Shown: positions 35,919 through 57,973 of the stretch, one piece after another
Layout: every line of letters starts with the position of its first letter
Numbering within the stretch: position 1 is the first letter of the stretch
DNA from: Candidatus Terraquivivens tengchongensis
Lineage (GTDB): Archaea > Thermoproteota > Nitrososphaeria_A > Caldarchaeales > Wolframiiraptoraceae
Assembly: GCA_023261845.1 (NCBI GenBank)
Contig: JALNJZ010000004.1
Span: 69,693 to 133,692 of the forward strand
Direction of reading: 5' to 3'
Length of the DNA: 64,000 bases
Made by a program: the position numbers and the translations under genes
Notes under the pieces: model-generated
Databases searched by the model: none
The model's input: the letters and a program-made list of their open reading frames with translations, nothing else
Told to the model about the DNA's origin: nothing

Positions 35919-37445
35919 GTGAATGCTCAGAAGACCAGCCTTCTTATCATGGCACCTATAGGGGACCTCTCAGGCTGGAGGCTAGCAAACTACTATATTC
36001 AAGGCAAACGCTACTCGACGTGCTGCTCTGCCATAGCTCTGGCCCTACACAACTCCCAGCGTTATAACCACATACATCTGCAGATTTATGTGCTCGACTC
36101 TCTAACATGCTCACCTTTGCTTGGGAAGTGGTCCGAGGATCAACCTTTACAGAGGCAAGTCATTAAGCAAGTTTTGGAGAAATCGTTTAAAGAGGAGGTG
36201 CTTAAGGTTGCCCAGAGATCAGGTATTGGGGCGCAAGTAGGGCATAACGGTGCTGTTTACATAAGAAGCCAGTGCACCCTGACAATATCGGTCCACATAT
36301 CCCAAGCTGCTGGTGAATATGCTGTTAACAGGGAAGGAGCCCCAGTAGCATCAGCCGTATTTAACGGAGACCCCACATCAATATTCACAAAGATCATCTC
36401 CTCAGTCATAACACTTCCTGAATACGGCGACATACTGTTAGACCTCACACATGGTATCAACTACATGCAGTCGATGGCGGTCTATGCAGTTGAGATACTT
36501 AAAAATCTTATACCCGTCAACGTCAGGGTGCACAACGCCTCACCTTATCCGTCTGGAGTCTACCAAACAACCTTCTGCTTTCCCACAACCGTAAAGCAAG
36601 TAAAACAAAACATAATGAGAAATCAGCCCGATTTAATGATACTCGACCTATCAGGCCTGCAGCACCTTTGGGATCTTTCGGCAAGCTTCTCCAATCTAAC
36701 CCTTACTAGAAAAGATGTGGAGACTATTCGTAAAGCCCTCAATCACGTCATCTCTCAACTTAAGCTATGTAGCACAAGCTATAATGTTTTACAGGCTCGC
36801 CACACGGTACTGGCTTGGTATTACTTAGCGGCTGGGGTGATCACGATAGGTTACATCAATGCGGTAAAGTCTTTCAAAGAGACGGTTGATCTGGACAACA
36901 TCCAGCAACTTGCAAATAAAATAGAAGAGGCTGAAATCGGCTTCGATGTTGAGGGGGATAACGATCGCATCATATTCAAATACAGGGCTCGTACTGATTG
37001 GAGGTTTGCTGTTCCGTTCATTGTGTGGTACATGCGCCAGAGGCTAGCCCAAGTCATTAGCAGAAAGGATATTAAGGAAACGGATAAGATAACTGTCAAT
37101 GGAAATGAGCTGATAACACTGCTCGACGGACTCTCTAATGTAAATCCTCTCTACATGGCCGTCGGGAATGCTCTGAGATATGAGAGGGACAGGATACTCC
37201 AGAAGAGCCGAGACCTTAAGATGTATGAGTTCTCCATGGAAAGATCTGAATATAGGAAGCTGTTTTTCGGTACAGATAGTCCTCTCAGCCAGCTAAAGTT
37301 AAGTGAAATGAAAAGACACCTACAGGCACACGTGGGTATAACATACGAACCAGTCACCCATATAAAAATAACCGATAATGAGGTTCAGTTAACGCTGAGG
37401 GTTGGGGACCTTGGAGAGGGTCCCTACAACGTATGGCCTAAGTGA
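35919..37445 (+). CDS. csx1: Csx1-family CRISPR-associated CARF-HEPN protein (DxTHG motif)
   Basis: N-terminal CARF-like GDLSGWRLANYYIQG. DLTHGINYM is a DxTHG motif. C-terminal HEPN Rx4H (KRHLQAHVG). 508 aa. Confidence 0.55.
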   Translation: MNAQKTSLLIMAPIGDLSGWRLANYYIQGKRYSTCCSAIALALHNSQRYNHIHLQIYVLDSLTCSPLLGKWSEDQPLQRQVIKQVLEKSFKEEVLKVAQRSGIGAQVGHNGAVYIRSQCTLTISVHISQAAGEYAVNREGAPVASAVFNGDPTSIFTKIISSVITLPEYGDILLDLTHGINYMQSMAVYAVEILKNLIPVNVRVHNASPYPSGVYQTTFCFPTTVKQVKQNIMRNQPDLMILDLSGLQHLWDLSASFSNLTLTRKDVETIRKALNHVISQLKLCSTSYNVLQARHTVLAWYYLAAGVITIGYINAVKSFKETVDLDNIQQLANKIEEAEIGFDVEGDNDRIIFKYRARTDWRFAVPFIVWYMRQRLAQVISRKDIKETDKITVNGNELITLLDGLSNVNPLYMAVGNALRYERDRILQKSRDLKMYEFSMERSEYRKLFFGTDSPLSQLKLSEMKRHLQAHVGITYEPVTHIKITDNEVQLTLRVGDLGEGPYNVWPK

Positions 37446-40570: not shown

Positions 40571-41365
40571 GTGATTCAAGGTATGAACAAAACCTTTTTG
40601 AATAAGGCATGCATAATAAAACAGGAAATGGTCGAAAGAGTCGTAACAGGCATATCAGGATTGGATGAAATACTTAATGGAGGGATTCCTAAAAGGAATG
40701 TAGTTTTGCTCTCCGGTGGACCTGGTACAGGAAAATCGATACTTGGTCAGCAATACCTTTACAACGGATTGCTTCGTGGAGAACCCGGAATACTGGTAGT
40801 TTTGGAGGAGCACCCGGTACAAGTAAGAATATCCATGTCTCAGTTTGGATGGGATGTGAGGGTATACGAAGAGAAGAACGTATTCGCGATAGTTGACGCG
40901 TTCACAGCAGGAATAGGTGAGGGGGCGAAAAGGGAAAAGTATGTCGTAAGGGACCCGGGGGATTTTCAAGTTCTACTAGATGTCGTAAGAGATGCTATAA
41001 AGGACGTGAATGCGGAAAGGGCCGTAGTAGATTCTGTCTCGACGTTATACATAACAAAACCTGCCATGGCTAGGAGCATGGTTCTACAGTTGAAGAAAGT
41101 CCTGTCCGGGATGGGTTGTACTTCGATACTAATCTCTCAAGTAAGTGTGACTGAGAGGGGATTTGGTGGTCCGGGTGTAGAGCACGCTGCTGATGGCATA
41201 ATCAGGCTCGATTTGGATGAGGTTGACGGAGAATTGAAGCGCAGCATAATCATCTGGAAGATGCGCGGCACATCGCATTCCATGAGGCGGCATCCATTCG
41301 TTATAACCAATAAGGGGATAGAGATAAGAGCGGCCGAGACTATAAAGGTTGGTGAAAGAGCATGA
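40571..41365 (+). CDS. KaiC-like RecA-superfamily ATPase
   Basis: Walker A GGPGTGKS and Walker B VVDSVSTL. 264 aa. Confidence 0.7.
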
Positions 41366-41829
41366 GCGAAGAAATCTCCCTCTCGCCCTTAGGTAAGGAA
41401 CAGATACACAAGCTCGAGTCTGCTCTCTTGATAGGTACGATACTTAGGAGCGACGTACTGGAAGAATTGAAAGACCCTTCGGAAAGGTTGACGTGGGTTG
41501 ATTCGTTAGCAGTAGCGGCTGCGGCCATCGCAAGGGAAAGGGCCAAGATGACAGTATCGCAAATAGCCGAAGACATAGGCAGGAGCGAGGCGACTATAAG
41601 AAATCATCTTGCGGGCAAGACTAGGGCAGGCCAGTTAATTCGTCAAACATTGGAGAGGTTTGCCAAAGAAGGCGTAAAGATAGAATTGCCATCAATTTCG
41701 GCAAAAGAGTTGGAAGATTTAAAGAAGCAACTGGAAGAAGAAAGAGAGAAAGTGAAAAGGTTGGAGGCATTGATCAGTGAAGTGAAGAGCTCGCTAAACA
41801 CTCTCATAGATAAGCTAGAAAAAGCGTAA
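41362..41829 (+). CDS. HTH and coiled-coil protein, translationally coupled to the KaiC-like gene
   Basis: [22 protein letters not shown] helix-turn-helix, then heptad-rich [31 protein letters not shown] overlap. Confidence 0.45.
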
Positions 41830-41937
41830 CGTATATTCTTACCTCTTTACTCATTTCAACCCGTAGAATTATAAGCGGAATGTACAAAAACGATACACTT
41901 TATGTAAGGTCGGACGAAAAATGAAGATTATAGTAGG

Positions 41938-43260
41938 TTATCCCTTTTTCTTTCTAAGAAGTTTGTAAAGAGTTCCTAGAACTACAACGGCCGTCAGATA
42001 TGGCGCAAATTGGATAAGTTTTTGCTGGACTTCCACGTTTGCTATGCTTGTTGGGTATACGATGTATCCTCCGACCATAGAAGGTGCAGCTAGTGGATTT
42101 GACCCTGCGTTGACTTCTGCTCCATCGCTTATTCCATCTCCATCGGTATCTGGATTCCGAGGATTGCTTCCTACCACGAACTCTCTGAAGTTAGATAGCC
42201 CATCACCATCCGGATCCGAATTTCTATCGTTTGGATCATTTGGGTCTAAACCGTTTTCCTTTTCCCAATAATCTGACATTCCATCTCCATCATTATCAGT
42301 GATGAAATATCGAAAGATGAATTCCCTATGCCCTACTGCCCATCCATCTTTAGAAGAGACCATATGTAGACCGCGTAACATCTCATATCTCCCAAGAGGT
42401 TCGATGGACCAAACTGGCGTTGGTGTTGACCCATCCCAATGGAAGATATGAGGTTCACCGCCTCCTACAATCCATCCATCATTACCGCTTACCATGTAAA
42501 TCTCTCGGAGGTTCACACTATAAGCTGGCCAAAGGAATGAGGATTGCTCCCACGTAGTTCCATCCCAGTGATATATGCTCACCGAGCCGACGGCCCAAAC
42601 ATCATTAGAACTTACCATAAACACTGAGTTCAGAAAACTTGCAAGTGAGATATAGTGCTTTGTCCATGTTGATCCGTCCCAATGAAGTGTTACAGCCCCT
42701 AGCATAGGGTTATCTTTCTCATGTTCTCCAACTACCCATCCATCGCTCGAGGATAACATATGTACTGATTTTAGATGTGCCGACGTGGGACTCGAAACGG
42801 AGCTCCATGACGCACCATTCCAGCGAAGGATTGTTCCATTACCTCCAACGACCCAACCATCGTTTGCAGATACCATGTAAATCAAGTATAACCAATTGCT
42901 CTGAATGGAGCGTACTAAATGCCATGCTGAGCCATCCCAATGAAGAATTATTCCTATACTTCTTGGACTGTATTCAAAACCAACTACCTACACGTCATTT
43001 TCGGAAAGGCAGAACACATCTGTTAACGTAGTGTAAACAGACACAACACTATCTGGAATTATAACGATACTCCATGAATTCCCATTCCATTTAAGAACGA
43101 TCTTACCATCCCCGACGGCATACCCAAGGTTACTGTCCGAAAGATGCACTGATTCTAACAATCCATCTGTTGGGCTAGGGAATTTGACCCAAGGATCATA
43201 TAGTCCTGCCAAGACAGTTATAGGCATGCTCAAAAGAAGACATAGAATCAAAGAAAGCAT
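41938..43260 (-). pseudogene. secreted beta-propeller (BNR/Ycf48-like repeats) plus thrombospondin-type-3 Ca-binding repeat surface protein, interrupted by an in-frame TAG at a conserved Trp codon
   Basis: Signal peptide MLSLILCLLLSMPITVLA. Repeats SxNDGWVVG / [10 protein letters not shown]3 repeats DNDGDGMSD...DPDGDGLSN...[10 protein letters not shown]-terminal TM. The two listed ORFs (42988..43260 and 41938..42885) are one frame, with TAG at 42988-42990 replacing the repeat Trp (ENDV*VVG). Confidence 0.6.
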
Positions 43261-43483
43261 TATTAAAGATGTTTTTACTTAACAAAATTTTCACCTAAGC
43301 TTTTATTAATTTTTTAATTTTTTTGAATATTTAAAATTTTTCCTGAGGTTGGATCGAAGTTTTCCGTTAATCCTATTTAAGGAGGCAATTTGCTCAATAA
43401 GTTGAAGGACTTACTGAACGTTTTCGTGAAAGGGCTATAAAAGTGCAATAAGTGCCCAAATACGGTCTAACGACAAGGATTAT

Positions 43484-44608
43484 GTGGAACTACAAGCGAT
43501 TTATAAAAATGTTTATAGTGAGTTATCTGAGCTGATAACTCGGAGGGAGATAATGGTCCAAAAAGATTTACCGCGAATTGGGAAGTTGGCACCAGACATC
43601 TTCAACGAGACAATATTTCCCAAGACGGGGACTCCAGACCGTGACTTATTGGTCGGTCCAAGGCATGGTTTTGATGCAGCTGTTTTAAAGGTCGGAGACA
43701 GAGTAATGGTTGTCGCGGAAGACCCAACGTTCGGTGTTCCATCTTGGGGTTGGAGGCAGTTCGGATGGGGCATAGTTCATATATGTGCCAGTGACGTCGC
43801 AGTTTTCGGTGTGAGACCGAAGTACATGACGATATGCCTGCTACTGCCACCAAACACGCAGCGAGGCGTTCTGGAGGAGATATGGAACTCGATACATGAG
43901 GAGTGTGTTAGGCTTGGTATAACGATCGTTGGAGGGCACACTGGTGTTTATGGAGGAATATCGTATCCATTAAACGGAGGATGTACTGTATGGGGGTTTG
44001 CCGAAGATGGTAAGTACGTTACGCCGGGAGGTGCTCGAGTCGGTGACAAGATCTTGATCACGAAGGGCGCAGCGATCGAAGCCACTGCGATTCTTGCGCT
44101 ACAATATCCTAAAACGCTCACGAGGGTTTTTGGTTCTTCATTCGTCAAGAGGGCGCAGGACATGTATTGGCAGATGTCGGTCGTTGAGGATGCTCTTACA
44201 GCCTTCGATGCCGGAGGAGTTACGGCGATGCATGATGCGACTGAAGGAGGAGTTCTTGGAGGAATTTACGAGGTTGCTGAAGCAAGCAATGTTGGGGTCA
44301 AGATATATTTGAACAGGATAAGGGTCCCTGAGGAAGCTAGGAAGATATGTGATTTCTTTAGAATAGACCCATACAAATCAATTAGCGAGGGGACGCTCGT
44401 ATTGACCGTGAGACCAAACAGTGTAGAAAACGTTATGAACGCTCTGAAGAGTAAAGGCATAGAGGCCATGGTTATCGGTGAGGTGACGGAGCTAAAACAT
44501 GGACGAAGAGTCATCTCAGAGGACGGTAAGGAGCTCGAGCTAGAATTTCCAGAGGAAGATCCATTTTGGAAGGTATTCTTTGAAACTTTAGAGAAACCTG
44601 ACATTTGA
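43484..44608 (+). CDS. AIR synthase-related (PurM-superfamily) protein, possibly a thiamine-monophosphate kinase-like enzyme
   Basis: GFDAAVLKVGDRVMVVAEDP N-domain and a PurM C-domain. 374 aa. Confidence 0.45.
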   Translation: MELQAIYKNVYSELSELITRREIMVQKDLPRIGKLAPDIFNETIFPKTGTPDRDLLVGPRHGFDAAVLKVGDRVMVVAEDPTFGVPSWGWRQFGWGIVHICASDVAVFGVRPKYMTICLLLPPNTQRGVLEEIWNSIHEECVRLGITIVGGHTGVYGGISYPLNGGCTVWGFAEDGKYVTPGGARVGDKILITKGAAIEATAILALQYPKTLTRVFGSSFVKRAQDMYWQMSVVEDALTAFDAGGVTAMHDATEGGVLGGIYEVAEASNVGVKIYLNRIRVPEEARKICDFFRIDPYKSISEGTLVLTVRPNSVENVMNALKSKGIEAMVIGEVTELKHGRRVISEDGKELELEFPEEDPFWKVFFETLEKPDI

Positions 44609-44616
44609 AATGTTAG

Positions 44617-45225
44617 GTGTTGTGGATGATCTACCAAATTGAGCAGGAAAAAGACATCATTCTAGGGAACCTAGTTAGGGCTGTGCATATACTTGAATCA
44701 TCAGAATACTTTGGGCTCCTTATACCAGAGGTTAGGGTTAACATCGTGTATTCTATGGAGAACGCATCATGCCCTGATGAAGTTGCAGGAATAGATGGAC
44801 GAATAACCTTAGTAAACGGTAAGGTCAAGGCCGCAGGGTATCCAAGGTTTGGAGCGTCCGATCACATGGCAAGGCTCATAATAGAGGTTAGAAAGTACGA
44901 CAGGAGTTATAGGGCTGGAATAAACTTTGCATGGACGCCTGAACTATCAACTTTCTTGGAAGAATATTGTAAGGGAAGAGGCTGGGATTATGCTGGAATA
45001 GATAGAAGGATGGAACCTGAAGAGTTTTCATCGGTAGAGAGAAGGAGTATGCCGTGGAAGATAAAAACACTCGTAGAAATATGTGGAGGTAAAGTGCCGA
45101 AGGTATTCTACGAGGGGCCTGGCTTGGGTAAGGAACCTCTTACTGTGCTGCTAGGAAAGGATGCTGTAGAGGTAGCTACCGAGGTAGCTGAAATATCCAA
45201 ACAGTATGCCTCAAGGTGTAAGTAA
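44617..45225 (+). CDS. ThiN-type thiamine-phosphate synthase domain protein
   Basis: LIPEVRVNIVYSMENA...GRITLVNGKVKAAGYPRFGASDHMARLI resembles the ThiN domain. Confidence 0.45.
   Translation: MLWMIYQIEQEKDIILGNLVRAVHILESSEYFGLLIPEVRVNIVYSMENASCPDEVAGIDGRITLVNGKVKAAGYPRFGASDHMARLIIEVRKYDRSYRAGINFAWTPELSTFLEEYCKGRGWDYAGIDRRMEPEEFSSVERRSMPWKIKTLVEICGGKVPKVFYEGPGLGKEPLTVLLGKDAVEVATEVAEISKQYASRCK
45169..45225 (+). repeat. 3'-terminal 57 bp of the ThiN-like gene; a diverged copy is at 48700..48757
   Basis: ggtagctaccgaggtagctgaaatatcc... encodes VATEVAEISKQYASRCK. Confidence 0.55.
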
Positions 45226-45333
45226 GCGCACGTCAATTTTGAGGGGACTGGCATGTTCATCTATGAAGGGGCTATGCCAAAGTTAGGCACCGATAATTTA
45301 ATATTACTTTAATAACGTTAATTTTTCATATGT

Positions 45334-46119
45334 ATGAGTGTGGGCGATGTGAACCACATATCTACTGGGAGCGTGGAACTTGATTCGGTTCTTGGCGGTG
45401 GTTTTCCAGCAGGCAGCCTAATTGTGGTTACTGGCCCTCCTGGTACTGGTAAGACTATTTTTGCAGTAAACTGGATTTATAACAATATCAAGAAATTTGG
45501 CGAGAAAGGTTTGTATGTGAATTTTGTTGAGGGACATAAGAGCTTTATCGAGAACATGCGTAGTTTGGGCTTAGATTTTGAGGAGCTTGAGCGCACTGGA
45601 AAGTTTAGGTTTCTGGAGAGCGTTACACTTAAGGAGAGCGGCATCCCAGCGATTTTTGAGCAGATACTAAGCGAAATTGTTAATACGAAGGCAAGCATGC
45701 TCGTCATAGATTCTTTCTCGGCGATATCACAAGTTATGGAAAAACCCTACGAGGCACGCATATTCGCCCACACAATTCTGAGTAAGATTGTTAGGGATAT
45801 GGGATGCACGACGATGCTCATAATCGAAAAAGCAGGTGTTGAAGAAAACTATGAGGTGACAGAATTCTTATCGGACTTCATAATCAACCTCTCTAAAACT
45901 GAGGTCAGCGGGGCCCTCTTAAGATACTTAAGGATACTTAAGGCTCGTGGAACGGAGATACGACAGCAACGATTGGCCTTCACGCTGAAAGATGGCTTTA
46001 ACGTCTTCAAACCGGTATCTATAAGCGGTCTTCCCGAGTCGACAAAGAAATTTAAGATTGTACCGCATGGTAATTACTATTACTCTTCCGGTATTCAAGA
46101 TCTAGACAGAACAGAATAG
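45334..46119 (+). CDS. KaiC-like RecA-superfamily ATPase
   Basis: Walker A GPPGTGKT and Walker B LVIDSFSAI. 261 aa. Confidence 0.7.
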   Translation: MSVGDVNHISTGSVELDSVLGGGFPAGSLIVVTGPPGTGKTIFAVNWIYNNIKKFGEKGLYVNFVEGHKSFIENMRSLGLDFEELERTGKFRFLESVTLKESGIPAIFEQILSEIVNTKASMLVIDSFSAISQVMEKPYEARIFAHTILSKIVRDMGCTTMLIIEKAGVEENYEVTEFLSDFIINLSKTEVSGALLRYLRILKARGTEIRQQRLAFTLKDGFNVFKPVSISGLPESTKKFKIVPHGNYYYSSGIQDLDRTE

Positions 46120-46127
46120 TTGGTATA

Positions 46128-46766
46128 ATGTTTAGTAAAGGATGTTATAACCTCCTAGAGATTGAGAGGGATGTTACGTTACCACCTGAGCGTTTATTCC
46201 GGGTAACAGTCTCGAATGTGTTGAACCAAGGCGGTTGTGTTGTCATTCTTCCACCTCAGGGCCTAAGTGCATTAACGGTTTGGAATTCGCTTGAGTCATT
46301 CGTTTACAAAGATGCCCTGAACCGTAACCTTAAGATCGTTGACTTTAAAGCTACAGTCGTTGAGAAAGTTGAACCACATGCAATCCTCTTTGAGGGGAAG
46401 TCTTTGAGGGAGGATATGTTATGCTTTTGGAATGCAATCACAGATTTTAGGATAAAACATAACAGACCAGTTTTTACTATTGTTGGTTTTGATACGCTGG
46501 AATATGTTTATGGAAAGGAGGAAGTTCTGAAGATTTTAGGTGCCGATCTATCCAGAGTGAGAAACTTTGGCGATATAAGATTGAATATTATTAGATCTGA
46601 ATGTAACATAGTCGAGTCCTTAAGATCTCTGGCAAGCGTTCATCTTATTGTTAAGGAGTTATGCGGCGCATTCTTCCTTCAAGGAATAAAGCCAAAAACA
46701 CCACTATTAAACATCGACGTTCACATAGATGAAGAGACGGAGATCAGATTAACACCAGCACTATAG
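46128..46766 (+). CDS. hypothetical protein, partner of the KaiC-like ATPase
   Basis: 212 aa. Starts 8 bp after the KaiC-like stop. Confidence 0.35.
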   Translation: MFSKGCYNLLEIERDVTLPPERLFRVTVSNVLNQGGCVVILPPQGLSALTVWNSLESFVYKDALNRNLKIVDFKATVVEKVEPHAILFEGKSLREDMLCFWNAITDFRIKHNRPVFTIVGFDTLEYVYGKEEVLKILGADLSRVRNFGDIRLNIIRSECNIVESLRSLASVHLIVKELCGAFFLQGIKPKTPLLNIDVHIDEETEIRLTPAL

Positions 46767-46940
46767 TCGTTTTTCACAACCTCGGCTAAACCTTGAAGTA
46801 TATAATGCTTAGACTACACACTCGGGCTCGAGGTGAAGTTACAAAGTGTATTTTGGAGTGCAGATAAGCATGTGTCAATTACAGTATGGGTACTGAACGT
46901 AAGATTCAAATAAATGAAATCATTTCGTATCATATCGTAA

Positions 46941-47780
46941 ATGGTAAAGAAAAAGAAAACCTCAAAGAAGGATAGACCGGTTAAAAGAGTACGTCGACGT
47001 TTATTTTTGGTTGCGCTCATCTTGTTAGGAGTAGCATCAGTTGGTGCAACGTTCTGGCTCCTATATCCCAGACCATCGTCCGAGGTACCAATATCGCTAA
47101 ACTGTCCACAAGCGAGTAATGGAGAGAAAGTTGCTGCGATCATCGACGGTCTTTCTATCGACTTTCCGAATCAAGAGCTAATTGATGAATTAAAATCTCT
47201 ATTGTCGAGTAACGGCTATGTAGTCGATGTCTTCCAGGGTTCAGATGTGACGCTGAACCTTTACAGATGTATACCTTCTATGGGCTACGATCTAATAATC
47301 TTTAGAATCCACAGCGCCATCTTTAACCCTCAACTCGTTCCGAAGGAGGAGCTCTTTCCGGCCTTCTTTACCACTGAGGAATACAGCATGGAAAAATACT
47401 TGAATGAGCAGTTCAGCGGCTTAGTCGTTCCAGCAGTTCCAATAACACCGGGACTTTCATCAACGGAGACGACCCAATACTTTGCGGTAACGCCTGGGGT
47501 TTTCGTGCAAGCAAGCGGACGGTTTAAGAACACCGTGATAATCGTCTCAAGTTGCTTCAGCGCCATAACTGATAAAGCTGCCAAAGTATTCTTAGAAAAG
47601 GGTGCCTCGGCTTACATCGGCTGGAATGATCTAGTATCTGTTGAACACATGGACAGAGCTACGCTCCTCTTAGTCCAAGAAATAGTGAAAGGTACGAGCC
47701 CGTACGATGCGGTATCAAAAGTGAATACGACTTTAGGACCAGACCCTAACTCTGGAGGGCGGCTGCTGATATTCCGATGA
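46941..47780 (+). CDS. N-terminally anchored extracytoplasmic protein
   Basis: Basic N-terminus followed by a TM helix LFLVALILLGVASVGATFWLL. 279 aa. Confidence 0.4.
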   Translation: MVKKKKTSKKDRPVKRVRRRLFLVALILLGVASVGATFWLLYPRPSSEVPISLNCPQASNGEKVAAIIDGLSIDFPNQELIDELKSLLSSNGYVVDVFQGSDVTLNLYRCIPSMGYDLIIFRIHSAIFNPQLVPKEELFPAFFTTEEYSMEKYLNEQFSGLVVPAVPITPGLSSTETTQYFAVTPGVFVQASGRFKNTVIIVSSCFSAITDKAAKVFLEKGASAYIGWNDLVSVEHMDRATLLLVQEIVKGTSPYDAVSKVNTTLGPDPNSGGRLLIFR

Positions 47781-47787
47781 ATTTATA

Positions 47788-48294
47788 ATGTTAACCAATA
47801 ACCATCGCGTTTTAATTTTGCTATTGTTCGTTTTAACGTTATCAGTAAGTGCAGCCTTTGTGCCGAGCGTTGCAAGCCAACCTATATGACCTTCTGATAC
47901 GCAATGGATCTGGATCGATTATGATAAAAACGAGGACGGGCCACAGGATGACTGGGGGGATGTCAAAAACGCATATTACTATTATGACGGAACTTATCTG
48001 TATCTAAGGCTGGAGTGTTATGCTGCACCAGGCTCAAAGTGGCCGGCAGACAATGCACGTTACAAGCGGTTCATCAACATAACGCAAGTGCTCTACATGA
48101 GCGGAGGAAACATAATCGGCGCAAAGTATCTATTATTCGTGGAGGATACAGACGATGATGGAACTGGCGAGATATACTTGCTCAAAGATATTATTCTTGA
48201 TGGAAAGTTTGATGAATATGGCCCCGGGCAGGCATACGATTCTATTGGTGTCTTTAACGGAAATGGGGACGGAAAAATTTCGCAGAGAGTTTAA
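47788..48294 (+). pseudogene. small secreted protein gene interrupted by an in-frame TGA (47887-47889)
   Basis: Signal peptide MLTNNHRVLILLLFVLTLSVSAAFVPSVASQPI, then TGA, then the same frame continues PSDTQWIWIDYDKNEDG...DTDDDGTGE... to the stop at 48294. Confidence 0.5.
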
Positions 48295-48423
48295 GTTTTA
48301 AAGTTTGATTTCCGCATCCTCATAGGCAAGGCGTATTAATATTGTTTTCAAACTCTTTCTATGTAGTTTATCGCATGCATTTGTTTGCCTATCTTCGTGA
48401 TGAACACAAGCTTCCTATTGATT

Positions 48424-48606
48424 CTAGTGGCAACAATGCCCTGAATGTTCAGAATGTCCGCCAGCATATTTTGTCGGATTCTTATCGAACGTTGTCTTAC
48501 ATATTTGGTTACAGAAGTAGTATGTTTTGCCCATATATTCTGATTTGAACTTGGCAGTTTTCTCGTCCACATCCATACCGCAAACTGGGTCTTTAGCCAT
48601 ATTCAT
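48424..48606 (-). CDS. YHS/TRASH-domain metal-binding protein
   Basis: DPVCGMDVDEKTA...GKTYYFCNQICKTTFDKNP. Confidence 0.65.
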   Translation of the reverse strand: MNMAKDPVCGMDVDEKTAKFKSEYMGKTYYFCNQICKTTFDKNPTKYAGGHSEHSGHCCH

Positions 48607-48699
48607 ATTTCACCTCCTATGTATTCGCTTACAACTTGAGGGATTTAAAATTGCCGAATTGCTGAGAGCAAATAAGTAACTGAAAACCATTGTATAGGT

Positions 48700-48757
48700 A
48701 GCTACCGAGGTTGTTGAAATATCAAAATACTACGCTTTAAGATGCAAAAAACTGAAA
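48700..48757 (+). repeat. diverged duplicate of the ThiN-like gene 3' end (about 75% nt identity, same orientation)
   Basis: ggtagctaccgaggttgttgaaatatcaaaatactacgctttaagatgcaaa translates to VATEVVEISKYYALRCK, against VATEVAEISKQYASRCK at 45169..45225. Confidence 0.55.
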
Positions 48758-48883
48758 AGCTGTCAGCGAGAGAGTGCTGTAATATCTGCTGGCTCTGGAA
48801 AACTAGGTAAGCTTTTCCTACACCAAAACATTTATTTCCGCCTGATTGAACTCTTCTTTTTAGCTAAAGGAGTCTAAAAGGAT

Positions 48884-50089
48884 ATGGCGCCAAGGATCTT
48901 ATCTCAAGAGGTTGCGCGTGAATTTTATCTGCTGAGGGTTGATGATGAGAAAGTTAATTATTTCGAGGCCCTTTGGAGCATTCCAGAGAAAGTGACTTAT
49001 AACGCGTATCTGTTAGTAGGAAATGGTGAGGTTGTTCTATTTGATTGCTGGAAGAATACCTATGCTGATGAGCTTGTTGAGACGATTAAAGGGATCGTGG
49101 ACCCACGGGATATAACGCATATAATTGTTCATCATGCCGAGCCAGATCACTCCGGTTCTCTTCCGAGGGTTCTTGAGGTAAACGGGTTCAGGGCTGAGGT
49201 TGTGACCTACTCCATGGGCAAATCCATTCTCGAAGCCTTATACAAGATATCCCCTAAGTTCAGGATAGTGAAGGATGGTGATGAGCTCGCATTGGCTGGA
49301 GAGAACATCAAGATTATCCACACACCGTGGCTACACTGGCCCGAGACCATAATGAGTTATCTTTCAGGACGTAAGATATTGCTTTCGTGTGACGCTTTTG
49401 GAGGCTACTCGATCCCAAGAACCATCTTTGATGATGAAGAGGTTGTCCGAGAGTATCTGCCGAGTGTCAGGAAATACGTCGCAACAGTAATAGGATTCTA
49501 CAGACAACACATAATCCGGAACGTAGAGAAAATTCAAAGCCTTGGACTAAGCATTGATATGATAGCTCCGGCCCACGGGCTTATATGGAAAAGGAGGCCA
49601 CAACTGATTGTAGATTACTACAGGGCGTTAGCTGAAGGGCGTCCCGACGAGTATAAGATTCTAGTCATTTCCGGCTCGATGTACGGCCTGACGGAAGCGG
49701 CTACGAGAGTCGCCGTTGAAGAAGTGGAGAGGTTAGGGGGTCGTGTGGTTTTCTACCGGTTCGATGATTCCGAGCAACCTCCGTTTTCTGATATCCTAGG
49801 CGATGCAATAGACTCAAAAGCAATTATCCTCGCTACGCCGACTTACGAGGTTGGCATCTATCCGCCGCTAGATCAACTGGTTGAGTTAATCACTAAGAAG
49901 ATTCCACAGAAGCCGGTACTCGTAGTAGGTTCTTATGGTTGGGCTGGTGTTGCGGCCAAGAAGGTCTCGGAGAAGCTTGGAGGTTCGGGCTTTAAGGTGA
50001 TCGATGTTATCGAATTTCAGGGATCTGCGAGTGAGAAGAACATTCAGAGGATTAGGGAGGGTGTGAAAAAACTTTTCGAATCACCATAA
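48884..50089 (+). CDS. fprA: A-type flavodiiron protein (FprA-like: metallo-beta-lactamase plus flavodoxin domains)
   Basis: HHAEPDHSGS (HxHxDH) with D..H diiron ligands. C-terminal flavodoxin-like ILVISGSMYGLTEAA. Confidence 0.8.
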   Translation: MAPRILSQEVAREFYLLRVDDEKVNYFEALWSIPEKVTYNAYLLVGNGEVVLFDCWKNTYADELVETIKGIVDPRDITHIIVHHAEPDHSGSLPRVLEVNGFRAEVVTYSMGKSILEALYKISPKFRIVKDGDELALAGENIKIIHTPWLHWPETIMSYLSGRKILLSCDAFGGYSIPRTIFDDEEVVREYLPSVRKYVATVIGFYRQHIIRNVEKIQSLGLSIDMIAPAHGLIWKRRPQLIVDYYRALAEGRPDEYKILVISGSMYGLTEAATRVAVEEVERLGGRVVFYRFDDSEQPPFSDILGDAIDSKAIILATPTYEVGIYPPLDQLVELITKKIPQKPVLVVGSYGWAGVAAKKVSEKLGGSGFKVIDVIEFQGSASEKNIQRIREGVKKLFESP

Positions 50090-50290
50090 AAGCGAGAATT
50101 ACGACCTGTTATCTCTCGAGGATGTGGAGGGGTCTCTGATATGATGAACAGACCGTGGAGTGGATTGTACATGCTTAACATGTGGGCGGTGAAATTGCTA
50201 CCACAATTCTCGTAACAGCCATATTCTTAGGATGTTTGAGAATATGACCGAAGGACGAGTTGCCATTTATCTATAGAGAGTTTGTTCCCG

Positions 50291-50339
50291 AATTAGTTTT
50301 ACATCTGTGGAAAAATTTTTCCAGCATGCTGAACTAATT
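50291..50339. repeat. palindromic element, copy 2 (imperfect stem)
   Basis: aattagttttaca-tctgtggaaaaatttttcc-agcatgctgaactaatt. It shares about 28 bp (aaaatttttccagcatgctgaactaatt) with copy 1. The loop segment ccacag versus ctgtgg is inverted. Confidence 0.65.
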
Positions 50340-51073
50340 ACTCTATATACTCATAGAACTTTCTTTAATGCAAAACCGCAGACAATCAATCATATAAAGA
50401 CGTATTTGTCCCATGCCATGGATAGTGACGGTGGATGGCACTATTATCTGGGAATTAATCTTTCGTCTACGTTTCTCTGGAATGATATTCACCAACGCCT
50501 ACAATTATCGCCATTAAACCCAATAGTATAAGTATCCAAGGCCAGAAGCCAACATAAAAGAGTATGGCGAGTCCTATCAAGAAGGCCCCACCGGACACAG
50601 AAAGCCAAAGCCTCCTCCTCGAACTCCCATCTCTGCTTTTCTCAGGCACAAAATTTTTTCTCTTAGGGGAACTTAAAAGGTTTATGATTTAAACGCCAGC
50701 AACTATCTCCAATTGCCATATAACTCTAATGTAATTTTCATACCCTTAGGTTACGCTAGTCGGCAGATATACGTCCTTTTATTTTTTAACAGAAAGGGGA
50801 ACGAAAAATTGAAAATATGGATATTATGTCATGAAAGATATTGATGAAGAAATTATTGGTTTCATTTTTGCTTCTTAATCAATGATGATGATTTTTATAG
50901 TAGTGATAACAATAACCGCAATAGCCGCCTACTATGTGGAAAATCAGCCCAAAGAAAAGAAATATTCAGCTTTTAAGCAACTAGGTAGGCTAACTCTCTT
51001 CATAAGCCATCGTGGAAAATAGGGTCGAAAAAATGAAAATGATTGTTACACCTGTAACAATTCTTAAAAGTAT

Positions 51074-51157
51074 GCGGGGGGTGGGATTTGAACCCACGAA
51101 CCCCTACGGGACAGGAGCCTCAGTCCTGCGCCGTTGACCAGGCTTGGCAACCCCCGC
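51074..51157 (-). tRNA. tRNA-Leu (anticodon GAG), class II, CCA not encoded
   Basis: Hand-folded: acceptor GCGGGGG/CCCCCGC, anticodon stem CAGGA/TCCTG with loop CTGAGGC, long variable arm, T-arm GTGGG-TTCAAAT-CCCAC. 84 nt. Confidence 0.8.
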
Positions 51158-52560: not shown

Positions 52561-54372
52561 CTAAATCGCACATGTTTCAGGCATGGGTATTGCTTCTAGG
52601 AATTCCTTTTGGAATTCTGGCTCGGCAGCTAGCTCCACGTATTCTATCTTCTTAGCGACGTTACATGCAACATCTCTCAGGGTCTTTGAAAGAAGCATAG
52701 CTCTCGCACCGGCACCAGCAGCATTACCAACAATCCTTATCTTGCTCAAGTCTATGTTAGGATACAACCCTATAATTTTTGCCGAGATTGGATTAAGAAA
52801 GAAACCAAACGTACCGGCAACGTAAAGCCTCTCAGCTTCTGATACATCTACCTGAAGCTTCTTCATCAAAATGTTCATGCCAGTCCTGATCGCTGCCTTT
52901 GCCAGCTGTATTTCTCTTATGTCCTTCTGCGTCAACACTATGTCCTCGCCTATGGCCGTGTTCTCTTTGTATTCTACGACGAATTCTGGATAATTCCTAT
53001 CATTCATCCTTATGCGTCTTGTGCCTACATTCGTGTTCAACCTTCCCGACTTATCCATCAGACCTGTCGTAAATAAACCAGCAACTAAGTCGACAACCGC
53101 AGAACCTGTCATGCCTCTTGGCTTTACGTTACCTATAACACTATAGCTCACCTCACCATTAGCCATAACCTCTATCCCGTATATCGCACCGATGGTGGCC
53201 CGCATTCCGTAGGTTATGTGGGCGCCCTCAAACGCAGGGCCAGATGCGGTTGAGCAAGCGACAAATTTTCCATCCTTCTTGACGACTATCTCAGTATTCG
53301 TTCCTACATCAACTAAGATTGCAGCATCCGCATCTTCTTGCATGTTGGTTGCTATGATGTCGGCTACAACGTCCGAGCCCATATATCCCGCGATTAGCGG
53401 CGGCATAAAGAGTCTAGCTTCAGCATTCGCACGTATACCTACACTTTTTGCCATAACACATAATGGTTCTCTTGTCGTGGGTGTGTACGGGAAATATGCT
53501 AACCTTTTCGGCTCAAGACATAAAAGGAAATGATGCATGACTGTATTACCTACAGCCACTACCTCATAAACGTCTTCAACGTCACTTCCAGTTGTATCAC
53601 ATGCCGTGTTTATGAGTTTATTTATACAGCTGATTATTTTTTCTTGCAACGCTTTAACACCTTCCTTTAAGGCATAGTCGAGCCTAGATACGACGTCCTC
53701 ACCATAAGCTATCTGTGGGTTGATATCGGAAACTGTTGACAAAGTCTTACCACTCATTAGGTCGACTAGGTAACCAACAACTTTGGTTGTACCCACGTCT
53801 ACTGCGAAGCCAAGAGGTCTGCAGTTCTCTCGTACATCGATTATCTCATCGTTGTAAGTTATAAGCGAGAGTTTTTTCTCAATACCTACATCGGCTATAC
53901 GGGAAAGCTTCTGTAACGCATGAAGATTAAATCGTTTTGGTACACTTAACGATGATACAACTTCATCCAATGCACCCCATACTTTAGCAGGTAGTGTGAC
54001 GTTAACTTTCTGGACTACAGAATCAAACCGCTCCTCAAACACTTCGCCTTCAACTGATACGACATATTCGCCCAACCTACTCTCGCCCGGCACGAATACC
54101 GATATCGCATTCTCTCTAACTATCTTGCATCTGCAAGAAAGTCTATAACCTTCGTTCAGCTTCTTTGAGCTGAGCACTATTTTTTCATCACTAGTTAAAT
54201 CAGATATACTATCTGAGCCGACGATTATTTTGACCATACACTTTCCACATAACGCCTTTCCATTGCAAGGTCCAATGATGTCAATTCCTGCCCTGCGAGC
54301 AACTTCAAGCAAAGATTCGCCGATTTTTGCCTCAACCCTTTTCCCTTCTGGCATGAAGCTGACGATAACCAT
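52561..54372 (-). CDS. reductive activase of corrinoid proteins (RACo/COG3894: N-terminal [2Fe-2S] ferredoxin plus ASKHA ATPase)
   Basis: N-terminus GPCNGKALCGKC...YRLSCRC (plant-type ferredoxin cysteines) fused to an actin-fold ATPase region. 603 aa. Confidence 0.65.
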   Translation of the reverse strand: MVIVSFMPEGKRVEAKIGESLLEVARRAGIDIIGPCNGKALCGKCMVKIIVGSDSISDLTSDEKIVLSSKKLNEGYRLSCRCKIVRENAISVFVPGESRLGEYVVSVEGEVFEERFDSVVQKVNVTLPAKVWGALDEVVSSLSVPKRFNLHALQKLSRIADVGIEKKLSLITYNDEIIDVRENCRPLGFAVDVGTTKVVGYLVDLMSGKTLSTVSDINPQIAYGEDVVSRLDYALKEGVKALQEKIISCINKLINTACDTTGSDVEDVYEVVAVGNTVMHHFLLCLEPKRLAYFPYTPTTREPLCVMAKSVGIRANAEARLFMPPLIAGYMGSDVVADIIATNMQEDADAAILVDVGTNTEIVVKKDGKFVACSTASGPAFEGAHITYGMRATIGAIYGIEVMANGEVSYSVIGNVKPRGMTGSAVVDLVAGLFTTGLMDKSGRLNTNVGTRRIRMNDRNYPEFVVEYKENTAIGEDIVLTQKDIREIQLAKAAIRTGMNILMKKLQVDVSEAERLYVAGTFGFFLNPISAKIIGLYPNIDLSKIRIVGNAAGAGARAMLLSKTLRDVACNVAKKIEYVELAAEPEFQKEFLEAIPMPETCAI

Positions 54373-54512
54373 TCTTTCCTTGTTCCCCCAGATTCAGCTC
54401 ACATCCCCGTTAAAAGCATATATCCTTTAAAAGTCAAACTGCTATACCGATACAATATTTACACATACATGTAAAGCTATAAATAAATAGCAGATAAAAG
54501 TTTCGCGAGTAC

Positions 54513-55214
54513 GTGACGCAAGCAGAAGATGTTATAGTTAGCAAGCAACTAGCCAGACTTAAAGAGGCAATACTGAACGGTGATGCAAACACCGCAAGAG
54601 AGGCAGCTACTATCTTAAAAGAGAAAGGTCTCTTGCCCCTCGACATAGTTAATCGAGCCATTAAACCAGCGATGGATGAGATGGGTAAAAGGTATGAGAG
54701 GTTAGAGGCATTTCTTCCTGACCTAGTCTTAGCAGGTGAGGCGGCCCAAGAAGCATTGAAAGTTATACTACCAAAAGAAGGGGAAGAAGCTTTCATCAAG
54801 GGCAAGGTCGTCATCGGAACTATATACGGAGACATACATGATATAGGTAAGAACATCGTGGCAGCGATACTGAGTGCCAACGGTTACAAAATAATAGACC
54901 TAGGTAATGATGTGCCACCTGAAAGGTATATTGAAACGGCAAAGAAAGAGGGCGCGCATATTATAGGCATATCATGTCTCCTGACACCATCAATGTACTA
55001 TATGAGGGATGTTATCAGAAAGTTAGAAGAAGAAAACATTAGGGACAAGTTTTACGTGATCATTGGTGGAGCAGCAGTTTATCCAGATTGGGCTAAGGAA
55101 ATTGGTGCAGATGGATGGGCCAAAGATGCCGAAAGAGCGGTCCAGCTTTGCGATACCCTAATCGAAAGGGGCAAGGAACTTCCTAAACCCGTTATTTTAG
55201 GCGAATGGCGCTAG
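54513..55214 (+). CDS. mtaC: corrinoid (cobalamin-binding) protein, MtaC-like
   Basis: B12-binding DxHxxG motif (GDIHDIGKNIV) with an N-terminal helical cap. 233 aa. Confidence 0.75.
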   Translation: MTQAEDVIVSKQLARLKEAILNGDANTAREAATILKEKGLLPLDIVNRAIKPAMDEMGKRYERLEAFLPDLVLAGEAAQEALKVILPKEGEEAFIKGKVVIGTIYGDIHDIGKNIVAAILSANGYKIIDLGNDVPPERYIETAKKEGAHIIGISCLLTPSMYYMRDVIRKLEEENIRDKFYVIIGGAAVYPDWAKEIGADGWAKDAERAVQLCDTLIERGKELPKPVILGEWR

Positions 55215-55230
55215 TTGGAGGGGCAACTTC

Positions 55231-56613
55231 TTGGATTTACTTTTCAACATTCTAGACAAGACACTCACAGGTCCTCCTATTGAAAAACGTGATTTTGAGT
55301 TTAAGCTAGTTCCAAAGACGACACGAGATGTTCTTAAAGAATACGGCCTCGAAAAGACGTTTGACCCAGAGAACCCAATAAACACTGACCTAAAGCTCGC
55401 TGAACAATTTTACAAAGCTGGATATGAGTTAGCACTAAGGCTCGGCATGTTCTGTCCAGATACGAAAAGGAGAGTAATTTTCACAGAAGAAGAGATTAAG
55501 GAAGCTTTAAGGAACGCTCCAACAGAAGTCACGCTCGGCTATGGCAAAGATAAAGTTACGATAAGGAGTAGGAAACCTGAGGATAGAAATCCTCCAGTCG
55601 CCGAAGGGTCGGCTTTAGGCATGTCGATAAGCGAGGAGTACTTCATACCGCTCTGCATGGCAATAGCACAGTACAAAGTCATAGATATCATTCTTGCACC
55701 TACACTAGATACGATAAATAAACGTGAAATTAGGGCGAGGACACCTTACGAGACAATTATGGGAATGTATGAGGCCAAGTACGTTAAAGAGGCCCTAAGA
55801 CGTATAGGAAGACCTGGAATGCCGCTTCATGGTGTCGAGGGTGCTCCAACAGAGTACGGCTACTTCTCAGGCTTCCTCTGGGGTGGGTTCGAACCTGATA
55901 GAACAATTGGTATAGCGCTCATACCCGAGCCGATAACACTGTCCTATCAGATACTTCATAGAGTTGTCGTTAACCATCTAATAGGCTCACCCCTTGAGGC
56001 GGGACATATGCTAAACATAGGCGGCTACTTTGGTTCACCCGAAGGTGCGGTTGTCGGAGCCGTTGCTGCTCAGATTCTTCAGACTGCATCGATGTTCCCA
56101 ACAGTCGTTGAAAGCACAATACTAGATGCGAGGTATTTCGTAAACACTAACAGAGAGGCTCTTTGGGCTACGAGCACTAGCATGCAGGCGAGAACGCTCG
56201 GCAACAAGGTAATGAACCTTGGCATAACGAGCCAGGTGAGTGGTCCATGTACGGACATGTTACTGTATGAAACGACAACGATAGCTATAGCGGATTCTGT
56301 TTCAGGTGTAGCGATAGAGATCGGCACAAGACCAGCGGCATGTAGGTACAAAGATCACGGAAGCGCGCTCGAAAACAAATTCTTCGCAGAGGTTCTTAAA
56401 TCGTCGGCTAAGAACTTAAAACTTACAGACGCGAACGAGATGGTAAAGGCACTTTTGCCCAAGTATGAGCACAAGCTCAAAGATCCTCCAAAAGGAAAAA
56501 GCTTCCCAGAATGTACGGACCTAAGGACGCTCCAACCTTCGAAAGAGTGGTTGGAGATATACGAAAGAGTTTGGAAGGAACTCGAGGACCTTGGACTTCC
56601 TCGGTGGGAGTAG
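55231..56613 (+). CDS. MttB-superfamily substrate:corrinoid methyltransferase (non-pyrrolysine)
   Basis: IFTEEEIKEALRNAPTEVTL and IGGYFGSPEGAVVGAVAAQIL parallel MtgB/MttB segments (VEEAIASAPSEFVL; SIGGPEAALNCAGAQ). 460 aa. No internal TAG. Confidence 0.45.
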   Translation: MDLLFNILDKTLTGPPIEKRDFEFKLVPKTTRDVLKEYGLEKTFDPENPINTDLKLAEQFYKAGYELALRLGMFCPDTKRRVIFTEEEIKEALRNAPTEVTLGYGKDKVTIRSRKPEDRNPPVAEGSALGMSISEEYFIPLCMAIAQYKVIDIILAPTLDTINKREIRARTPYETIMGMYEAKYVKEALRRIGRPGMPLHGVEGAPTEYGYFSGFLWGGFEPDRTIGIALIPEPITLSYQILHRVVVNHLIGSPLEAGHMLNIGGYFGSPEGAVVGAVAAQILQTASMFPTVVESTILDARYFVNTNREALWATSTSMQARTLGNKVMNLGITSQVSGPCTDMLLYETTTIAIADSVSGVAIEIGTRPAACRYKDHGSALENKFFAEVLKSSAKNLKLTDANEMVKALLPKYEHKLKDPPKGKSFPECTDLRTLQPSKEWLEIYERVWKELEDLGLPRWE

Positions 56614-57973
56614 CTTGCCATTCAGAGAGTTGGCATATGAAAACGCATATGAGCTTGCCTTCGGTTTTGCTAAGAAACCTCTAAGTTATGGGTTAGGGCT
56701 TTCTGTCGGTGATGGTAAAGTTATACCCGAAGTCAAATACTTGCTAAAACCTGGCCTTGAACAGAATCTCAATGCACTTGTGGAAGAATATAAGAAGGTA
56801 ACGCTTTCAATCATGGAAAGAGCAGCAAACTTAGGGGTCACAGACGTTCAGCTAGAGACGGAGTTTGTTGAACCTATGACTATGAACCCTAGCTGGGGGG
56901 CGGCTGTGATAGAGACACAGAAAGAGGTTCTTTCAACCTATTACGAAAGGTATGGAATTAGGTCAGCACTTAGAGCTACAATAGCCGACGTAAGGAGGTT
57001 TAGTAAGGGGCTTCGTAAGGGCGAGTATTTTCAGGCGATCATGGATTCGTTTATAAACGCGGCCGAGAGTGGTGCGGACCTACTATCAATCGAATCGAGA
57101 GGAGGTCAGGAAATTTTTTCATACTCGCTCATAAGAAACGATCTAGCAGGCATGCTGTTCTCTTTTGGTATCCTCGCGCCGAGGGATGTCAGATACATTT
57201 GGAAAGAAATTGTGAAGAATGCAAAGAGGGTCATACCTGCAGGAGATACCGCTTGTGCCCTAGCTAACAGCGCCATGGTCTTAGCAAACGGGTTAGTTAA
57301 CAGGAAGATACCGCATACGCTGGCCGCAGTCATTAGGGCCATGTCGGCGGTCAGAACTCTGGCATGCTACGAAGAAGGTGCAATGGGTCCCGGAAAAGAT
57401 TGCGCATACGAGAATGTAATAATCAAAATAATCACAGGTTATCCGATGAGTATGGAAGGCAAGACTTCGGCCTTTGCCCACTCCAGCCTAGTAGGTAACA
57501 TAGTTGCCGCAGCATGCGACCTTTGGTCCAACGAGACGATAGTCGTTGAGGATACATTTGGTGGCAAGACACCTGCTATAATATTTGAGATGTTAAGTTA
57601 CGACACGGCTTTAATGAACGAGTCGATAAGGTCAAGAAATAACAAGATTCTTCAACAATTGTTCATTAACTCAGACAAGTACAGAGACCCGCAAGCTTTA
57701 ATCTTGTCACCCGATAACGCGTTCAGAATAGCGTCCGCCATTGTTTCAGCAAATTCGGATTACGAAAGAACAATTTCCGCCGCACTTGAGGCAATCCGTA
57801 TAATAGAGGATAATCTGAGTATATTGAATATGCCAGAAATAGAGAAGCGATACCTTGCGACACTGAAAAACTTTTTTGAAGCAGTTCCTGATGAGCATAA
57901 ATTAATTGAAGAATCTATTAAAAAGTATAGCGGAAAGGTTCCTGAATTTAATGCAACCAATTACGAGCTTTGA
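56591..57973 (+). CDS. mtaB: methanol:corrinoid methyltransferase MtaB
   Basis: NPSWGAA, GADLLSIESRGG, AGDTACALANSAM, GPGKDCAYENVIIKIITGYPMSMEGKTS, CDLWSNE and DKYRDPQA all match MtaB motifs. 460 aa. TTG start. Confidence 0.75.
   Translation: MDFLGGSSLPFRELAYENAYELAFGFAKKPLSYGLGLSVGDGKVIPEVKYLLKPGLEQNLNALVEEYKKVTLSIMERAANLGVTDVQLETEFVEPMTMNPSWGAAVIETQKEVLSTYYERYGIRSALRATIADVRRFSKGLRKGEYFQAIMDSFINAAESGADLLSIESRGGQEIFSYSLIRNDLAGMLFSFGILAPRDVRYIWKEIVKNAKRVIPAGDTACALANSAMVLANGLVNRKIPHTLAAVIRAMSAVRTLACYEEGAMGPGKDCAYENVIIKIITGYPMSMEGKTSAFAHSSLVGNIVAAACDLWSNETIVVEDTFGGKTPAIIFEMLSYDTALMNESIRSRNNKILQQLFINSDKYRDPQALILSPDNAFRIASAIVSANSDYERTISAALEAIRIIEDNLSILNMPEIEKRYLATLKNFFEAVPDEHKLIEESIKKYSGKVPEFNATNYEL

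Follow-up and report, generated by a model that had tools for sequence, protein, structure and literature searches.

For bacterial effector arrays, Kirchberger et al. (2017, PMC5361080) propose homology-facilitated illegitimate recombination, which shifts old genes or 3' ends downstream, and cite de Vries and Wackernagel (2002) and Prudhomme et al. (2002) for the process. A study of thaumarchaeal integrated elements, which includes Ca. Caldiarchaeum subterraneum, places 14 of the 68 elements in 3'-distal parts of protein genes, gives a median attachment (att) site length of 17 bp, and describes elements that encode an integrase or casposase and other mobile-element genes, by gene-content classes (PMC6563490). 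The locus considered here is a duplicated 3' end of thiN, the gene of a ThiN-domain thiamine-phosphate synthase, within a 64,000-nt stretch of the Candidatus Terraquivivens tengchongensis genome (contig JALNJZ010000004.1, positions 69,693 to 133,692; hereafter the window, whose own coordinates are used throughout). An initial annotation, made from the letters alone, had taken the duplicate for the footprint of a site-specifically integrated element, now a decayed island. The analysis favors another origin: with a probability of about 0.65, the duplicate would be the integrase-free scar of homology-assisted illegitimate recombination between two chromosomal arrangements.

Thaumarchaeal integrated elements are delimited by their integrase or casposase content, and the att repeats of recent integrations are normally near-identical. 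Cis-mobilisable elements (CIMEs), described for streptococcal integrative and conjugative elements (ICEs), are remnants without an integrase that lie between att sites; they keep functional, near-identical att sites and can be traced to a recognisable ICE family. The loci with which the window was compared are labelled L001, L002, L061, L062, L063 and L141-L148. L061 is a sister strain, 99.1% identical to the window in nucleotides, and L146 (GCA_025059205.1) has a thiN product 90% identical in amino acids to that of the window; the thiN orthologues of L062, L144 and L146 lie at 84-90%. The closest thiN loci are labelled Nitrososphaeria, Candidatus Terraquivivens and 'Aigarchaeota archaeon', and an exact-protein look-up finds identical thiN and KaiC-like products in GCA_038838905.1 (contig JAWBEY010000001.1). 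With each of four other species-level relatives the window has about 82% nucleotide identity in the genes that the two share. Third codon positions are near saturation, and the relationships among the window and these four are almost star-like.

The second thiN tail and the gene stumps around it

The thiN gene (44626..45225, + strand; Pfam PF10120, E = 2e-49; 199-aa product) appears intact and functional. Its last 57 nt recur about 3.5 kb downstream as an ungapped direct repeat in the same orientation, copy 1 at 45165-45221 and copy 2 at 48691-48747, both on the + strand, with 46/57 positions (81%) identical. The local alignment of the two scores 35; across 60 dinucleotide-shuffled versions of the whole window the score is 13.0 +/- 1.2, with a maximum of 16. 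Among the 3' tails of 55 genes, each compared with the 8 kb on either side of it, the thiN pair is a clear outlier (35; next 20; median 13), and these two results together rule out chance similarity. The duplication that the initial annotation had noticed is thus real; its position, given there as 48700-48757 at about 75% identity, was off by only a few bases, and the translations read there, VATEVAEISKQYASRCK* for copy 1 and VATEVVEISKYYALRCK for copy 2, agree with those obtained here. Copy 2 is nonetheless not an open reading frame (ORF): an in-frame TAG stands immediately before it, the position of the stop codon reads AAA, and the A-run in which it ends is one base shorter in the sister strain. 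The thiN ends of L144, L146 and L001 match copy 2 as well. From these features the stretch 48691..48748 (+) reads as what is left, dead and non-functional, of a thiN 3' end. It belongs to a group of at least five stumps around the gene of a flavodiiron protein (FDP). A second thiN tail was found at none of 122 thiN loci from other organisms, only in the window's own species.

Copy 2 lies inside another gene that has been broken. In L146 an 836-aa protein carrying a CARDB domain (Pfam) is encoded near thiN, and 47851-48240 of the window matches residues 25-154 of it (tblastn, 81.5% over 130 aa, E = 7e-55). This N-terminal stump of a CARDB-domain surface protein occupies the reading frame at 47788..48294 (+), and the homology ends sharply at 48240. 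The gene breaks off at residue 154 and picks up again at about residue 790, in a C-terminal stump at 50168..50239 (+) just beyond the FDP gene, on the same strand and collinear with the first; this stump has an internal deletion. The remnant scores 40 against 20.3 +/- 2.3 and, in a second test, 26.2 against 9.6 +/- 1.6. Because collinear CARDB stumps flank it on both sides, the stretch 48241-50167, with a YHS gene, copy 2 and the FDP gene, lies within the broken CARDB gene. The N-terminal stump is the opal-disrupted secreted protein of the initial annotation. The TGA is there (47887-47889), but the same codon is TGG (Trp) in the sister strain, which makes it a recent and strain-specific change, either a nonsense mutation or a sequencing error in this strain; and the gene that it interrupts is the stump of a far larger one.

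The FDP gene has itself been torn from an operon. L143, L062 and L063 hold an intact Prx-(Rbr)-Dfx-FDP-SfsA operon, in which Dfx denotes desulfoferrodoxin. In the window the FprA-type FDP (48884..50089, +) is 80% identical in amino acids both to the thiN-adjacent copy of L144 and to the operon copy of L143, and it is preceded by a 59-nt 3' stump of the Dfx gene (48752..48810, +), recognised by nucleotide alignment to L143 and fused directly to copy 2, the thiN stump being joined to the Dfx end within the A-run. These last 19 codons of Dfx encode EKLSARECCNICWLWKTR*, where the intact protein ends AEKLSAREYCNIHGLWKTK*. Behind the FDP gene, and overlapping its end as in the intact operon, stands a 5' stump of SfsA (50040..50141, +) of about the first 35 codons, with stops. 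The homology is continuous: window 48754-50141 aligns to L143 9873-11258 with 80% nucleotide identity over 1.39 kb, which spans the Dfx end, the Dfx-FDP spacer, the FDP gene and about the first 35 SfsA codons. Since Dfx 3' and SfsA 5' stumps flank FDP, the block is a fragment torn from the Prx-Dfx-FDP-SfsA operon. The stumps thus number five: the CARDB N-terminus, the thiN 3' end, the Dfx 3' end, the SfsA 5' end and the CARDB C-terminus. Between the CARDB break and copy 2 lies filler (48241..48690), similar to none of the loci compared, that carries the YHS-domain gene (48424-48606, - strand; Pfam YHS, E = 7e-19).

Gene order in related genomes

Two arrangements of the region are found separately in relatives. 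In L144 and L145 the order is GlnA-KaiC-HTH-AIRS-thiN (HTH, helix-turn-helix), then 218 bp, FDP, and tRNA-Leu-MFS-RACo-corrinoid protein-MtmB-MtaB. These loci are syntenic with the window on both sides and do not have the 3.5 kb between the copies; window 43490-45227 aligns to L144 8049-9784, and window 48827-50126 to L144 9950-11243. The FDP block of L144 ends in SfsA within about 15 nt of the truncation point in the window, and after FDP it has a CARDB C-terminal remnant that is larger than that of the window, but inverted. L146 has the same outer synteny. There thiN is followed by 128 bp, by a membrane-protein gene and by the intact 836-aa CARDB gene, and the thiN locus contains no second thiN tail, no KaiC2/partner pair, no YHS gene and no FDP gene. 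The stretch from thiN to tRNA-Leu/RACo is, on these comparisons, a variable zone in this Caldarchaeales (Aigarchaeota-like) genus. In a further pair, L062 and L063, no more than 7-9 kb separate thiN from the FDP operon, which is encoded on the opposite strand.

The genes between the two copies are those listed in the initial annotation: a KaiC-like ATPase, a partner, a membrane protein, the TGA-interrupted secreted protein and a YHS protein, with no integrase. The ATPase gene (KaiC2, 45334-46119, +) has a Pfam KaiC match at E = 1e-49. Its partner (46128-46766, +) has no Pfam match; the few homologues show a faint PF20440 GvpD_bR2 signal, some are fused to the ATPase, and their contexts are free of mobile-element genes. 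The two together resemble a GvpD-like ATPase that has been split, and L141 has a truncated ATPase part. Because the pair is missing between thiN and the membrane gene in L146, it was gained or lost in a separate event. The partner genes of the window and of L061 differ mostly by non-synonymous changes (3/4/1 by codon position), and KaiC2 of L061 has a 5-nt deletion near its end, which suggests relaxed selection on the two genes. The membrane protein (46941..47780, +) belongs to no assigned family; its orthologue directly follows thiN in L146 (82% aa), and L148 has a homologue in an unrelated context.

This gene order bears directly on the integration proposed in the initial annotation, in which a tyrosine recombinase would have inserted an element site-specifically at the 3' end of thiN, leaving the copies as attL and attR of a cis-mobilisable remnant whose integrase was later lost. 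A direct repeat of a gene 3' end (57 nt, 81% identical) does flank DNA missing from one relative; of the thaumarchaeal elements, 14/68 are documented to sit in 3'-distal parts of protein genes (PMC6563490); and the uninterrupted thiN locus that the annotation anticipated exists in L144/L145, whose layout, taken alone, looks like an empty site. The sister strain also seems to have foreign DNA at the 3' end of the neighboring tRNA-Leu, and integrative elements probably circulate in this population. The repeat moreover holds a 16-nt identical stretch, AGGTAGCTACCGAGGT, which contains a 10-nt palindrome and has only these two exact copies in the window. This 'core' is equally conserved in the thiN genes of L144 and L146 and was rejected as a crossover site, being an ordinary conserved stretch of thiN.

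The rest of the evidence opposes such an element. No recombinase match appears even at E <= 1 in a Pfam search of all real ORFs and ten spurious or intergenic ones across 45108-51022, which bears out the statement of the initial annotation that an integrase is absent. Non-coding DNA within the segment totals less than 0.5 kb, and this high coding density leaves no room for integrase remnants. NCBIfam, PHROGs and PADLOC return only generic RecA/KaiC-fold matches for the ATPase and none for the other segment proteins, and none of three IMG/VR scans, one each for KaiC2, for the membrane protein and for a degenerate att pattern, gave a match; the cargo thus has neither mobile-element hallmark genes nor viral or plasmid relatives. 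Nor is the bounded DNA foreign throughout: although it is absent from L144/L145, the membrane gene and the CARDB gene are ordinary neighbors of thiN at the same site of the repeat-less L146, so that part of the content occurs in a relative without the duplicated motif, an observation that the initial annotation had named as speaking against its own reading. Copy 1 is, in addition, the native gene end and not one supplied by an element, because some 30 nt 3' of its stop codon (45226-45256) are orthologous to the 3' flank of thiN in L146. Copy 2 is fused to the Dfx stump inside a broken CARDB gene, and recurrent use of the target is not seen, the thiN tail being duplicated in 0/122 other thiN loci. 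What stands of the integration reading is that the duplicate marks a junction of DNA acquisition or rearrangement; a site-specific element as its source is very unlikely. The same Pfam search of 45108-51022 found no transposase or casposase, and no terminal inverted repeats occur at the borders, which leaves a transposon, insertion sequence or casposon without its expected traces. To our knowledge, no target-site duplication described for a transposon or casposon comes near the 57 nt of this diverged repeat.

A tandem duplication was rejected, the DNA after copy 1 and that after copy 2 being unrelated. The native copy could not be picked by comparing the non-coding flanks of both, since the flank of copy 2 and the L144 spacer are unalignable (P = 0.66-0.87); only the non-coding flank of copy 1 is assignable, and it is of the L146 type.

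Probable origin of the duplicated tail

The window carries the L146-type and the L144-type layouts in tandem. Under the preferred reading, homology-assisted illegitimate recombination would have joined them, and copy 2 would be the start of the second layout. The event would have combined a homologous anchor at one end with an illegitimate, non-homologous joint at the other, as in homology-facilitated illegitimate recombination, and neither an integrase nor a mobile element would be needed. An illegitimate joint is suggested because of the five stumps and the 450-bp filler, and a homologous anchor because the location adjoins homologous genes. The window has what such a scar should leave: copy 2 is a non-ORF stump of a conserved gene 3' end beyond newly juxtaposed DNA; the CARDB break, the 19 codons of Dfx, the approximately 35 codons of SfsA and the filler mark at least one illegitimate junction; and both parental arrangements occur in related genomes.

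The divergence of the copies leans the same way. Their identity (81%) is close to that of thiN between species (82-83% in nucleotides), and the 11 differences over 17 sense codons fall 1/2/8 at codon positions 1/2/3. This third-position bias departs from a uniform distribution (P = 0.009), is only marginally at odds with decay in place (P = 0.05-0.08), and agrees with the between-species pattern (P = 0.82). Although it falls short of proof, the bias favors a copy 2 that gathered most of its differences as the functional end of some other lineage's thiN gene. Counts of site patterns put the right flank of the locus nearer to L144 (412 vs 330 sites); the left flank tends weakly, and not significantly, to L146 (269 vs 244 sites). 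This regional bias suggests a mosaic ancestry.

Two versions of the event may be distinguished. In version (a), a fragment composed of the thiN stump, the Dfx stump, FDP and the SfsA stump, possibly with the CARDB C-terminus, would have come from an L144-type donor and taken the place of the central part of CARDB in an L146-type genome; homology in the CARDB C-terminus may have anchored it. In version (b), an L146-type fragment running from the thiN end through KaiC2, the partner and the membrane gene to the CARDB N-terminus would have entered an L144-type genome via thiN homology, pushing the old tail downstream. Version (b) keeps alive one idea of the initial annotation, namely that a new 3' end came in and displaced the old one, while dispensing with the integrase-bearing element. 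We slightly prefer version (a), because the CARDB stumps of the window are direct and collinear, whereas the remnant of L144 is inverted.

A rival reading is a Campbell-type insertion, in which a circle of chromosomal DNA from a related cell, carrying about 57 nt of thiN tail and its neighbors, would have entered by one homologous crossover, likewise without an integrase. A later crossover between the resulting repeats could set the circle free again, which would make it an integrase-independent cassette. The direct repeat around DNA missing in L144, the between-species level of copy divergence and the occurrence of a second repeat of like size (about 60 nt) around an insertion with a TSP3 gene at the nearby HTH gene would all be accommodated, and the thiN-FDP state of L144 could arise from it by recombination between copies 1 and 2. 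Recombination on 57 nt at about 80% identity is, as a matter of general knowledge, expected to be very inefficient, however, and the Dfx, SfsA and CARDB stumps are left unexplained by the crossover alone. L144 also keeps more of the CARDB C-terminus, and is thus not a simple deletion derivative; its descent from a window-like state by deletion between copies 1 and 2 was rejected on the grounds that its CARDB C-terminus is both larger and inverted. Taken together, this makes a Campbell-type insertion unlikely.

The position of the FDP operon in L062/L063 brings up a rearrangement in place. In a hypothetical starting layout thiN(+)-membrane gene-CARDB(+)-SfsA(-)-FDP(-)-Dfx(-), put together by combining the L146 and L062 types, inverting the DNA between the thiN stop and a point 59 nt short of the Dfx stop would yield the thiN/Dfx junction and the layout of L144. 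Template-switching or end-joining might then have copied a 57-nt patch of thiN, with the YHS piece, into the junction, and copy 2 would have decayed since. The operon lying 7-9 kb away on the opposite strand, an inversion that would give the exact thiN/Dfx junction, and the patchwork with filler DNA all suit this course of events. So does the larger number of derived changes in copy 2 (about 8 vs 3, including the loss of the stop; outgroup-polarised and counted by eye). Its difficulties are the third-position bias, which poorly fits a copy that never coded (P = 0.05-0.08), the requirement for a duplicative step in addition to an inversion, and the CARDB stump, which is still an open frame in the sister strain and argues against a very old event. 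Such an origin in place is accordingly judged improbable. A possible trace of rearrangement is seen in L144, where a Prx-AsnC pair (3111-4246, compared with L143 7954-9091) stands upstream of GlnA and FDP downstream of thiN; the GlnA-to-thiN block looks as if set between the halves of a former oxidative-stress operon, which may be a clue to the history of rearrangement.

Several observations weigh against recombination between the two arrangements as set out above. The Dfx stump is not detectable in the thiN-FDP spacer of L144, the L144 CARDB remnant is inverted and larger than that of the window, and the non-coding flanks of copy 2 and of the L144 thiN do not align. The approximately 450-bp YHS filler has no match among the loci compared. 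The codon-position test disfavors the in-place decay of an originally identical copy only marginally (P = 0.05-0.08), and sliding identity and exclusive-site counts give no signal of a crossover point in AIRS-thiN, the lineages being star-like at about 82% nucleotide identity. No simple history does without an additional step, and the sequence of events, the transfer between lineages and the operation of homology-facilitated illegitimate recombination in these uncultured archaea are all inferred. Finally, the like length of two stumps (57 and about 60 nt) may point to a process less haphazard than random illegitimate joining.

A probable second scar, neighboring features and described systems

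The second stump of like length belongs to the HTH gene (41362-41829), about 3 kb upstream of the thiN-tail scar. Its 3' end (41763..41823, +) recurs as a decayed duplicate (43381..43442, +) at the right edge of a 1.55-kb insertion. The duplicate scores 19 against 9.0 +/- 1.5 and the HTH tail of L144 scores 21 against 9.9 +/- 1.7, with 0/2000 shuffles reaching either value; it has decayed by indels, and the native HTH-AIRS spacer comes next. The insertion (41830-43380) carries a gene for a TSP3-repeat secreted protein (41938-42885, -) and a small ORF (42988-43260, -), and is missing in L144, L146, L062, L063, L001 and L002. Between the window and L061 the TSP3 gene has unusually many differences, 25, evenly spread over codon positions. 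With two stump-flanked insertions in a span of 7 kb, gene gain by this route seems to be common in the lineage. The thiN and HTH scars might even be two products of an integrase-independent cassette exchange, in which about 60 nt of a gene 3' end would act as portable homology, a single crossover bringing DNA in and recombination between the repeats taking it out; the likeness of the stump sizes gives such a regular mechanism a small chance, and it is on the whole rather unlikely.

Downstream of the FDP block, a search for the source of 50090-51072 found only the CARDB remnant and a small hairpin element. The latter, about 48 nt long (AATTAGTTCAGCA ... GGAAAAATTTTTCC ... TGCTGAACTAATT), occurs at least twice in the window (50290-50339 and 20148-20195) and once in L148 (9161-9191), beside the membrane-protein homologue; its folds are more stable than those of shuffled sequences (z = -2.9 to -4.0), and its possible roles are those of a terminator, a binding site for a protein or a small repeat element. 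The 500 bp at 50391-50891, between FDP and tRNA-Leu, are absent from L061, a strain-level indel. The sister strain keeps only the last 16 nt of the tRNA-Leu GAG (the 3' end, window 51073-51088), followed by at least 4.6 kb of unrelated DNA (L061 14070-18734) with a 445-aa coiled-coil protein, a 355-aa protein and small ORFs. This DNA is probably an element integrated in the tRNA gene; no integrase was found in the stretch 14070-18734. Rfam reports two tRNAs in the whole window and nothing else; the second (62857-62974, +, 118 nt), which ARAGORN did not report, probably contains an intron. The RACo-corrinoid protein-MtmB-like-MtaB-like methyltransferase cluster (52561-57973) is kept in every relative examined (L144, L146); in an Aigarchaeota-type archaeon such a metabolic module is worth noting. 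Some 10 kb upstream of thiN, a 175-aa fragment of an IS240-family DDE transposase (34708-35235, -) adjoins a Csx1-CARF gene (35919-37445, +).

The thiN repeat, though it looks like an att footprint, is better read as a recombination scar, and should not be counted as a mobile element or as an integrase target. The locus gives a view of how gene order is reshuffled among closely related uncultured hot-spring archaea, with FDP re-housed beside thiN, a surface-protein gene broken and five stumps left in place. Homology-assisted illegitimate recombination, a process well documented in transformable bacteria, may also be one of the usual ways in which these archaea gain genes. The case is relevant to archaeal genome plasticity and opens no new field.

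Among described systems, CIMEs share with the segment its short length, its boundaries of gene 3'-end direct repeats and its want of a recombinase of its own, but the window has neither near-identical att sites nor a recognisable ICE family. The integrated elements of thaumarchaea come nearer, with a direct repeat of a protein-gene 3' end flanking extra DNA, a related 'empty' site and the same phylogenetic neighborhood; unlike them, the segment carries no integrase, its repeat is only 81% identical, and part of the supposed element is native DNA. The remaining comparison is with the bacterial arrays of Rhs, contact-dependent inhibition (CDI) and type VI secretion system (T6SS) effector genes, in which displaced 3' ends and orphan immunity genes have been put down to homology-facilitated illegitimate recombination. 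The window differs from these in belonging to an archaeon, in involving housekeeping and stress genes (thiN, FDP) instead of toxin-immunity modules, and in having one displaced stump and no array, with no sign of selection for the retained stump and with a mechanism reached by reasoning. It resembles them in its conserved upstream anchor gene with new DNA beside it, in the diverged, non-expressed 3' stump downstream, in doing without an integrase, and in being a mosaic of DNA from related lineages. By this analogy the thiN-tail scar matches the displaced-3'-end scars of Rhs/CDI/T6SS loci, here in an archaeon.

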